Source: Escherichia coli
Lineage (GTDB): Bacteria > Pseudomonadota > Gammaproteobacteria > Enterobacterales > Enterobacteriaceae
Length of the DNA stretch: 64,000 nt
Reading direction: 5' to 3' (one strand)
NCBI RefSeq assembly: GCF_024700885.2
Contig: NZ_CP117016.1
Under the pieces are notes generated by a model that was given only the letters and a program-made list of their open reading frames with translations, had not been told where the DNA came from and did no database searches. Positions 2,662 to 5,345 of this stretch are shown here, one piece after another. The position numbers and the translations under genes are program-made. Each line of letters begins with the position of its first letter. The stretch's first letter is position 1.

Positions 2662-3339
2662 ATGAGTGCGTCGTTGGCGATCCTGACCATCGGCATTGTA
2701 CCTATGCAGGAAGTTTTGCCGCTCCTGACAGAATACATTGACGAAGATAATATTTCCCATCATAGCCTGCTGGGGAAGTTAAGCCGCGAAGAAGTGATGG
2801 CGGAGTACGCGCCAGAAGCAGGCGAAGACACAATTCTCACATTATTAAATGACAACCATCTGGCCCATGTTTCGCGTCGCAAAGTAGAGCGTGACCTGCA
2901 AGGTGTGGTTGAAGTGCTCGATAATCAGGGCTACGACGTCATTATATTAATGAGTACGGCAAACATTAGTAGTATGACTGCGCGTAATACGATCTTTCTT
3001 GAGCCGTCGCGGATATTGCCACCGCTGGTTTCCTCTATTGTTGAAGATCATCAGGTAGGGGTTATCGTACCGGTTGAGGAGTTGCTGACCGTTCAGGCGC
3101 AAAAATGGCAAATTTTGCAGAAACCGCCGGTATTTTCATTGGGTAACCCCATTCATGATTCAGAACAAAAAATCATTGATGCCGGGAAAGAATTACTGGC
3201 GAAAGGCGCAGATGTCATCATGCTGGATTGTTTGGGATTTAACCAGCGTCATCGCGATTTACTGCAAAAACAGCTCGATGTTCCTGTCTTGCTGTCTAAC
3301 GTATTGATTGCACGGCTGGCTGCGGAATTACTGGTGTAA
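2662..3339 (+). CDS. aroM: AroM family protein
   Basis: 225 aa ORF, RBS AAGGTGGAAG upstream; operon context. Confidence 0.85.
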
Positions 3340-3410
3340 TTTTGCGTGACAGCCAGCGCCTCTGGCCCCTATAGTGAAGTAGATGTTCAACTACCAGACA
3401 GGGCCAGTTT

Positions 3411-3695
3411 ATGCTTCAAAGTAATGAGTACTTTTCCGGCAAAGTGAAATCGATCGGCTTTTCCAGCAGCAGCACTGGTCGCGCCAGCGTGGGGGTTATG
3501 GTTGAAGGCGAATACACCTTCAGCACCGCTGAGCCTGAAGAGATGACGGTAATCAGTGGCGCGCTGAATGTGTTACTGCCTGACGCGACCGACTGGCAAG
3601 TGTATGAAGCCGGTTCGGTGTTTAATGTTCCCGGTCACAGTGAGTTTCATCTGCAAGTTGCCGAACCCACCTCTTATCTGTGCCGCTATCTGTAA
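3411..3695 (+). CDS. ppnP: Pyrimidine/purine nucleoside phosphorylase PpnP (YaiE)
   Basis: 94 aa cupin-like [20 protein letters not shown]. Confidence 0.85.
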
Positions 3696-3902
3696 TTCCT
3701 CGCCTTCCCCTTGAACGGGAGGGCATTTTTCTGAAATGTCCTCTCTTTAACCCATAATAATATTTCCTTTGCTGGGATTTTTTCGATTTCCGATATATTC
3801 ATAATTCATCAAGGTTGATATAAATATCAGCGAAGATCTCCAGATATTTTTGCGGAACTGGCCACGATAAAAGATAAATCAGATGATGAATGGTGGCGTG
3901 CA

Positions 3903-4232
3903 TTGCTGCAAAGTCGCAATGATCATTTGCGCCAAACGGCATTGCGCAACGCACATACCCCGGCGTCTTTGTTAACGACATTGACTGAGCCTCAGGATCG
4001 GGCGTTGGTTATTAATAATCCACAGTTGGCTGCCGATGTGAAAACGACGTGGTTAAAAGAGGATCCATCATTACTCTTATTTGTCGATCAACCCGATCTT
4101 TCGCTGTTACGTGATTTAGTGAAAACAGGGGCAACGCGGAAAATTCGCAGTGAAGCGCGTCACCGGCTTGAGGAAAAACAAAAAACGCATAATATTGCTG
4201 CGCTAAAAATTATTGCCCGCCGTAGCGAATAA
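3903..4232 (+). CDS. ykiA: Hypothetical protein (ykiA-like); start uncertain, TTG at 3903, no in-frame ATG upstream
   Basis: 109 aa ORF in an AT-rich patch; open frame extends upstream to 3819 without ATG. Confidence 0.35.
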   Translation: MLQSRNDHLRQTALRNAHTPASLLTTLTEPQDRALVINNPQLAADVKTTWLKEDPSLLLFVDQPDLSLLRDLVKTGATRKIRSEARHRLEEKQKTHNIAALKIIARRSE

Positions 4233-4257
4233 TTATATGCCTGGTGTAGCTTCGTAC

Positions 4258-4290
4258 GCCGGATAAGACGCGGCAGGCGTCGCATCCGGC
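4258..4290. repeat. REP (repetitive extragenic palindrome) element
   Basis: GCCGGATAAGACGC...GCGTCGCATCCGGC imperfect palindrome between convergent ykiA and rdgC. Confidence 0.6.
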
Positions 4291-4309
4291 ATTAAAGGAA
4301 AATCAGCAA

Positions 4310-5221
4310 TTAACGTTGTGCTTCGCCACCTAATCCTTCAATCAGGTTTTGAATTAACGCTGCCAGTTCACCAGTCATCAGGATGAAATCGGCATCAAAG
4401 CGCTGGGCGAAATCTTCACGGTCGATATCTTCGTTTTGATCGCGCAACTCGTCGCAGAACTTCAGACGCTTGAGCGAACCATCGTCGCACATCACAAACT
4501 GAATGCGCTGCTGCCAGTCGAGCGCCAGTTTAGTCACCACTTTTCCGGCTTCGATGTGATTGGTGATCTCTTCGCTGGTCAGATCTTGTTTCTTCGCGCG
4601 GATCACTCCACCATCTTCCAGCAGCGATTTCAGCTCGGCTTCATCAAGCAGCTGGAAGCCCTGTGCCGCGCTGCCGGAGCGTACCCATTCGGTCAGCGTC
4701 AGTTCAATCGGGTTTTCCATGCTCAATGGTACAACCGGTAACGACCCCAGGCTTTTACGCAGTAATGCCAGCGTATCTTCCGCTTTTTTGGCACTGGCGC
4801 AGTCCACCATAATCAAACCATTAACCGTGTCGATCCACATCATTGTCTGGCTAAAACGGCTGAAAGCACGCGGCAGCAGAGAGTGCAGCACTTCGTCTTT
4901 CAGCGAATCTTTTTCGGTTTTCTTCAGCTTACGCGCCTGTTCCGCTTCCAGTTTGGCGATTTTCGCTTCCAGCGCCTGTTTAATCACCGGAGACGGGAGG
5001 ATTTTTTCTTCTTTGCGCGCGCAGATAACAATTTGACCATTGGCAACGTGCGTTAACGCATCGCTGTGCGATCCCATCGGAGGAACCCAGCCCATCTTCG
5101 CCATGTCCTGGCTGCCGCATGGGGTAAATGCCATCGAGGCTAGCTGTTTTTCCATCTCTTCTGCACGCAACGAAATCTCGCGGCTAAGACGGTAAACCAT
5201 TAAATTTTTGAACCACAGCAT
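4310..5221 (-). CDS. rdgC: Recombination-associated protein RdgC
   Basis: Translation [16 protein letters not shown]...; start moved to internal ATG (303 aa). Confidence 0.92.
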
Positions 5222-5345
5222 GATAATTTCCACGGCCTTGTCGTTAAATTTAGCGGGCATGATAACGAATTGTCGGCGGCCTTGCATTGCCAATCCAGTT
5301 GTCCGTCTCTACGCTATTGATATTGAAAAAAATAAGGAGAGTACC

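Follow-up and report, generated by a model that had tools for sequence, protein, structure and literature searches.

The 109-codon open reading frame (ORF) at positions 3903..4232 (+ strand, TTG start) of the window, a 64,000-nucleotide stretch of Escherichia coli DNA, is very probably the relic of a gene, a pseudogene without function that is the 'ykiA' of E. coli and that takes the form of a chimera in this strain. Other E. coli carry intact genes at this locus, whose 3' ends share 95–99.7% DNA identity with the ORF, and its frame matches the Pfam family DUF2773 (PF10971) over profile positions 1–81 of 81 with 145.7 bits, against a cut-off of 25. The ORF corresponds to residues 667–759 of a DUF2773 protein (647–759 when counted from the deletion junction described below), followed by residues 136–151 of an SF0329-family protein, and since SF0329/ykiD, which supplies these last 16 codons, is a second gene, we term it a chimera. 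The region 3400–4600 is 100% identical to E. coli strain 1190 (NZ_CP023386), whose copy PGAP already flags as pseudogenic ('incomplete; missing N-terminus'). The exact 109-residue product has also been deposited as ATC13725.1, a 'DUF2773 domain-containing protein', and occurs on 51 contigs. In our reading the locus belongs in no count of protein-coding genes or of 'DUF2773 proteins', and the fusion of two genes together with a rare third decay step makes it slightly unusual for an ordinary pseudogene.

The gene order at the locus is aroM (2662–3339), ppnP (3411–3695, position 3696 being the first base past its stop codon), the ORF, and then rdgC (from 4310, minus strand), which is convergent with the ORF and is followed by mak. 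An earlier note on this DNA had described a 109-residue frame that can start only at TTG and is open from 3819 without an ATG, and both the ORF listing and the translation bear this out: an in-frame TGA lies at 3816–3818, the open frame 3819–3903 holds no ATG, GTG or other TTG, and the rare-start codons ATT 3846, CTG 3858 and ATA 3867 are the only ones in frame upstream of TTG 3903. The AT-rich patch reported there is equally real, with a G+C content of 0.36–0.37 at 3700–3924 against 0.44–0.57 around it (150-bp windows). The remark that the ORF has no clear ribosome-binding site was roughly right. The sole Shine–Dalgarno (SD)-like element is a GGUGG located 6 nt 5' of TTG 3903, and its anti-SD duplex (−4.9 kcal/mol) ranks among the strongest ~20% of window positions sampled (21.5% reach −4.0 or better). 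This site is weaker than that of SF0329/ykiD (−6.2 kcal/mol) and stronger than that of the intact DUF2773 gene (−1.0 kcal/mol). On the ppnP side, a terminator-like hairpin with a T-run (3702..3724, + strand) stands directly 3' of ppnP and comprises an 8-bp stem with 6 G–C pairs followed by ATTTTTCTGA, an assignment by consensus match only. On the other side, a REP-type palindrome (4258..4290) lies between the ORF and the convergent rdgC as an inverted repeat with 14-nt arms that are 86% complementary, and gives a sub-threshold match to the REP-derived naRNA4 (27.8 bits, gathering score 59.5), a family with hits below threshold on both strands. The rdgC ORF was listed at 4310–5293 on the minus strand with 327 codons from a TTG, as against 303 codons (912 bp) for the annotated rdgC of the identical strain; the 24 additional N-terminal codons are an artefact of the ORF listing.

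The earlier note proposed either a decaying gene remnant or a poorly expressed small protein, and suggested comparing orthologous regions for an intact ancestral gene. Such a gene, encoding 759 residues, does occupy the ppnP–rdgC interval of O157:H7, of other E. coli and of Escherichia sp. E4930, and the retention in the window of codons 647–759 only, the PGAP call and the relaxed constraint documented below all support the remnant interpretation. In E. coli O157:H7 the ppnP–rdgC interval carries a 2,280-bp DUF2773 gene (positions 563–2842 of the O157 locus, here L003, with the ATG at 563; product WP_120795310.1, 759 residues) and a 450-bp SF0329-family gene (product WP_001303823.1), the two overlapping at ATGA. 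The window is orthologous to this pair, with 3843–4181 equivalent to codons 647–759 of the former and 4182–4232 to the end of the partner gene. The islet is AT-rich (35–48% G+C). Since the intact gene is syntenic both in an E. coli allele of 90% identity and in Escherichia sp. E4930, where the copy is 73% identical and SF0329 is missing, its presence appears to predate its absence in the genus.

Breakpoints were placed by blastn against the O157 locus and by junction alignments. Window positions 3400–3837 are collinear with L003 124–561 at 97.7% and end 1 bp before the ATG at 563, positions 3843–4181 equal L003 2501–2839, and positions 4182–4600 equal L003 3244–3663, from the last ~15–16 SF0329 codons onward. 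The segment 3696..3837 (+ strand, G+C 0.36) is what the window keeps of the DNA 5' of the ancestral DUF2773 gene, an intergenic stretch that includes the promoter region. At the junction of the first deletion (3838..3842), CTCCA stands in place of 1,939 bp (L003 562–2500), with the loss of the start codon, the ribosome-binding context, the signal peptide and codons 1–646. The retained DUF2773 codons 647–759 (3843..4181, + strand) encode the last alpha-solenoid helices of the parent protein and cover all of PF10971; they are 95.0% identical to the O157 sequence and differ at a single position from the intact GF43 allele (338 of 339 identical; L016 3100–3438). An imperfect repeat, TGA(A/G)GAT, flanks the junction. 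The junction sequence GAAGAT-CTCCA-G is common to 13 of the 14 sampled deletion alleles in which it could be read, with small variations just downstream; strain F6326-C1 (L030) reads CTCCATG at this point and carries a 1-nt insertion adjoining the junction. The alleles with this junction include some in which other parts of the locus are still present and some in which they are gone. As the left junction is essentially alike in the sampled deletion alleles, the first deletion most likely arose once.

At the second junction (4181..4182), 404 bp are missing relative to the intact locus (L003 2840–3243), made up of a 372-bp deletion of the K-12 type and a further 32 bp. The K-12 ykiA (b0392) resembles the window in its locus, left junction, 113 codons (96.5% identical DNA), 372-bp deletion and upstream promoter region, and both remnants are PGAP pseudogenes. 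The 372-bp deletion is in frame, lies inside SF0329 and is bounded by the imperfect AGTTAC(A/G)GCG repeats AGTTACAGCGG and AGTTACGGCGT. The 32 bp that K-12 has kept (TGACACAACGTCCATGGAGCAAGTTACAGCGT) contain the remnant's TGA stop together with the ykiD ATG and ykiD codons 1–11, and in K-12, unlike in the window, the remnant TGA overlaps the ykiD ATG (ATGA) and the 27-residue YkiD is made. A second difference is found just 5' of the left junction, where K-12 has an in-frame TGA and the window has CGA. In the window the 32-bp loss lies between two AAAAC motifs and makes the remnant frame run on into the ykiD tail, that is, the last 16 codons and stop of SF0329/ykiD (4182..4232, + strand; KTHNIAALKIIARRSE followed by the stop), which are read in frame with the remnant. 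This tail is identical to the C-terminus of the 151-residue SF0329 of non-O157 intact alleles and to that of K-12 YkiD. The YkiD start and 27-codon frame MTQRPWSKLQRKTHNIAALKIIARRSE behind a GAGGA SD are absent from the window, which holds codons 12–27 only, fused to the remnant; with only these last 16 residues present, the window frame gives no SF0329 family match (PF25753 / NF049912) in Pfam or NCBIfam.

YkiD itself (27 residues; L002 2082–2165) consists of SF0329 residues 1–11 and 136–151, MTQRPWSKLQR joined to KTHNIAALKIIARRSE, brought together by the 372-bp deletion. Judging by this composition, the K-12 YkiD is what an internal deletion has left of the 151-residue SF0329, a description for which no paper was found in the literature searched. 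Chromosomal SPA tagging detects YkiD in K-12 (PMC6001520), and the case warns against taking a small protein for the product of a functional gene just because it can be detected.

We posit that the locus decayed in three steps, every one of which is present among sequenced genomes. In the first, CTCCA replaced 1,939 bp, removing the ATG, signal peptide and codons 1–646 while leaving the upstream promoter region. In the second, the 372-bp in-frame deletion shrank SF0329 to the 27-residue YkiD, giving the K-12 state, and in the third a 32-bp deletion took out the remnant stop and the ykiD ATG, so that the remnant reads into the last 16 SF0329 codons. If translated, the outcome would be a fragment that stays in the cytoplasm, has two to three helical repeats and cannot stand in for the secreted parent. 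An intermediate that combines the remnant with an intact 151-residue SF0329 is found in strains F6326-C1 and CUVET19-1704 (L032). A census over 5,426 complete E. coli genomes revealed the N-terminal bulk of the DUF2773 gene in 447 genomes (8%), mostly O157:H7 and relatives, and the SF0329 interior in 921, with about 474 genomes having SF0329 without an intact DUF2773 gene. The K-12-type ykiD junction is present in 4,467 genomes (82%) and the window-type junction in 25 (0.5%), all identical over the probe. A 73-nt probe for the left junction returned 3,033, an undercount (mismatches, E-value cut) on which no frequency rests. The result is a complete, population-sampled series of stepwise decay, which could be a teaching or benchmark case for pseudogene callers.

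The census also contains an SF0329-only side branch in which all but about 20 bp of the remnant has been deleted, including TTG 3903 and the whole DUF2773 domain. All four SF0329-only alleles sampled carry a +1 C frameshift at codon 6, CCCCC versus CCCC (L004 1763–2219; L029, L031 and L033 at ~1159–1615), and the surviving SF0329 gene is, on the face of this lesion, also dead in that branch. Beside an intact or truncated DUF2773 gene, SF0329 is intact and strongly constrained (dN/dS 0.06).

The alternative that survives best, although we consider it improbable, is that the ORF encodes a functional small cytoplasmic protein of 93 residues in most E. coli and 109 residues here, translated from TTG 3903, made up of the DUF2773 helical repeats and kept by selection once the remainder of the gene had gone. 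Gene callers and GenBank records list such a product, the GGUGG stands 6 nt before the TTG, the promoter is active and regulated in K-12, and the frame is open in 10 of 10 K-12- or window-type alleles sampled, none of which has a stop or frameshift within the 113 codons. This last observation is weak evidence against decay, however, since about one stop would be expected by chance. The earlier note had named purifying selection beforehand as the finding that would speak against a remnant, and what the alleles display is relaxed constraint. By the Nei–Gojobori method, with ten remnant and five intact alleles compared across the 339 bp that they have in common, and the intact alleles also across the full genes, dN/dS is 0.57–0.60 between remnants, compared with 0.23 for the whole intact gene, 0.21 for its deleted part, 0.38 for its retained part and 0.06 for SF0329. 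The variants private to remnants (19 nonsynonymous, 9 synonymous) fit neutrality (P = 0.20) and reject an omega of 0.23 (P = 0.006) or 0.06 (P = 1e-9), while being inseparable (P = 0.12) from the omega of 0.38 that intact alleles show over these 113 codons. Lesions are also on record among the alleles, namely an internal stop in CUVET19-1704 and a 3-bp deletion in L006 and L012, and the near-complete removal of the remnant in the SF0329-only alleles, which form part of the about 474 genomes noted above, further argues against a selected product. So do the lack of an ATG or GTG and the PGAP classification. Nor does the family match count in favour of a functional protein: the 81 positions of Pfam DUF2773 match only residues 679–759 of the 759-residue protein, which makes the 'domain' an artefact of the truncated K-12 entry, and the family appears to have been built on a truncated K-12-type relic.

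Divergence among remnants is 3–7%, against 1–3% in the flanks. The window remnant, nearly identical to the intact GF43 allele, differs from the K-12 remnant at 12 sites. In the shared segment, the intact EC1515 allele and the K-12 remnant are identical from about site 146 onward, a 3' stretch of ~190 bp. Mosaic alleles of this kind in combination with a common junction indicate recombination between intact and deleted alleles rather than recurrent deletion; independent recurrent deletions are rejected, as the sampled deletion alleles have one junction with the CTCCA filler.

Transcription of the pseudogene relic has probably persisted. For K-12, PMC3950696 places the ykiA promoter in the ppnP-side intergenic region, with a start determined by 5'-RACE and activation by BglJ-RcsB in lacZ fusions, and reports that mutation of a candidate site abolishes this activation. 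The corresponding part of the window contains promoter-like hexamers at 3731–3758, and CATAAT at 3800–3805 is a candidate −10 element. By analogy with K-12, transcription of the relic is probably low and BglJ-RcsB-inducible, from the retained promoter, and we infer that the message would be without an efficient start. Low-level translation from TTG 3903 may nonetheless take place, given that the GGUGG pairs more strongly (−4.9 kcal/mol) than the site of the intact gene (−1.0 kcal/mol). The bolder proposal that the 109-residue chimera, in which DUF2773 helical repeats are joined to the C-terminal SF0329 helix, is translated from TTG 3903 when BglJ-RcsB fires the promoter, and has acquired a function of its own, is one to which we give very little credence; if true, it would mean that a new gene had been born in a small E. 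coli lineage out of what two dead ones left behind.

Slighter again is the chance that the ORF acts as a non-coding or leader element, either serving expression of the ykiD/SF0329 frame or forming a 3' UTR or REP-stabilised transcript. The overlap of the K-12-type remnant stop with the ykiD ATG, in an arrangement from which YkiD is made, would suit such a role, as would the REP hairpin 3' of the ORF. In the window, however, the ykiD ATG and the overlap have been deleted and there is nothing downstream to serve, and even in K-12 coupling would be unneeded because ykiD has a strong SD of its own (GAGGA, −6.2 kcal/mol). An E-value scan of 3300–4700 against Rfam found no family at threshold, the sub-threshold matches being the REP-like naRNA4 and two chance matches. 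That the ORF arose by chance in AT-rich intergenic DNA and descends from no gene, as the missing ATG and AT-rich upstream sequence might suggest, is ruled out by the Pfam match (E = 4.5e-43) and by agreement at 338 of 339 nt with the 3' terminal part of an intact gene of 2,280 bp, which moreover is syntenic in several Escherichia lineages.

What was lost with the first deletion can be gauged from the intact protein. A search of 1.84 billion representative proteins yielded 169 relatives, about 35–38 of them full-length (750–820 residues, 25–35% identity). The AlphaFold model of the O157 protein, built with 39 sequences (pLDDT 92.4), comprises an N-terminal hydrophobic helix, a beta-helix at residues 68–176 and an alpha-solenoid of about 500 residues that extends from ~240 to 759, in which the part retained by the window equates to the helices from residue 646 onward. 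The N-terminus is read as a putative Sec signal peptide with an A-C-A cleavage motif, and on the model the parent is a putative secreted protein with signal peptide, beta-helix and LRV/HEAT-type alpha-solenoid. In contrast to the O157:H7 protein, the window has residues 647–759 only, the last 113 codons, and no start. Consistent with a solenoid of the LRV/HEAT type (PF01816, PF25591, PF02985), the full-length homologues match LRV_2 in 14 of 39 cases and HEAT and LRV in 11 each, and the helical part of the model resembles PP2A-A, importins and designed armadillo proteins (Foldseek E down to 5e-6). The likeness has its limits: for the E. coli protein itself the HEAT match is no better than E = 0.021, TM-scores to solved structures are low (0.1–0.3), the Foldseek matches are generic to HEAT/ARM folds, and no solved relative has the architecture of signal peptide, beta-helix and solenoid. 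As regards function, the intact protein has no sequence relative in the PDB, no PADLOC defence model and no NCBIfam match; five homologues outside ppnP–rdgC (49–26% identity) have neither shared neighbours nor an SF0329 partner, and nothing relevant on DUF2773, SF0329 or b0392 was found in the literature.

The SF0329 partner offers a comparison of its own. In two metagenomic contigs a tyrosine recombinase is followed by an array (34% G+C) of 10 or more small genes in one direction, among them Imm10 and an SF0329 homologue, and for this part only the arrangement fits the layout criteria of the recombinase-associated orphan-immunity arrays (rAID-1) of Ross et al. (2019, bioRxiv 10.1101/471110). 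Intact SF0329 has 151 residues (L013 3440–3895), and its conserved C-terminal helix, which is the part surviving at 4182–4232 of the window, contains the invariant N139 and R149. In non-O157 intact alleles the protein ends in KIIARRSE, as does the window frame. O157:H7 has six A's (CTAAAAAATT) where the other alleles have five (CTAAAAATT; L003 3230–3288 versus window 4200–4232), and with the additional A its otherwise conserved SF0329 ends in KNYCPP after 149 residues instead of KIIARRSE after 151, a lineage-specific C-terminal frameshift.
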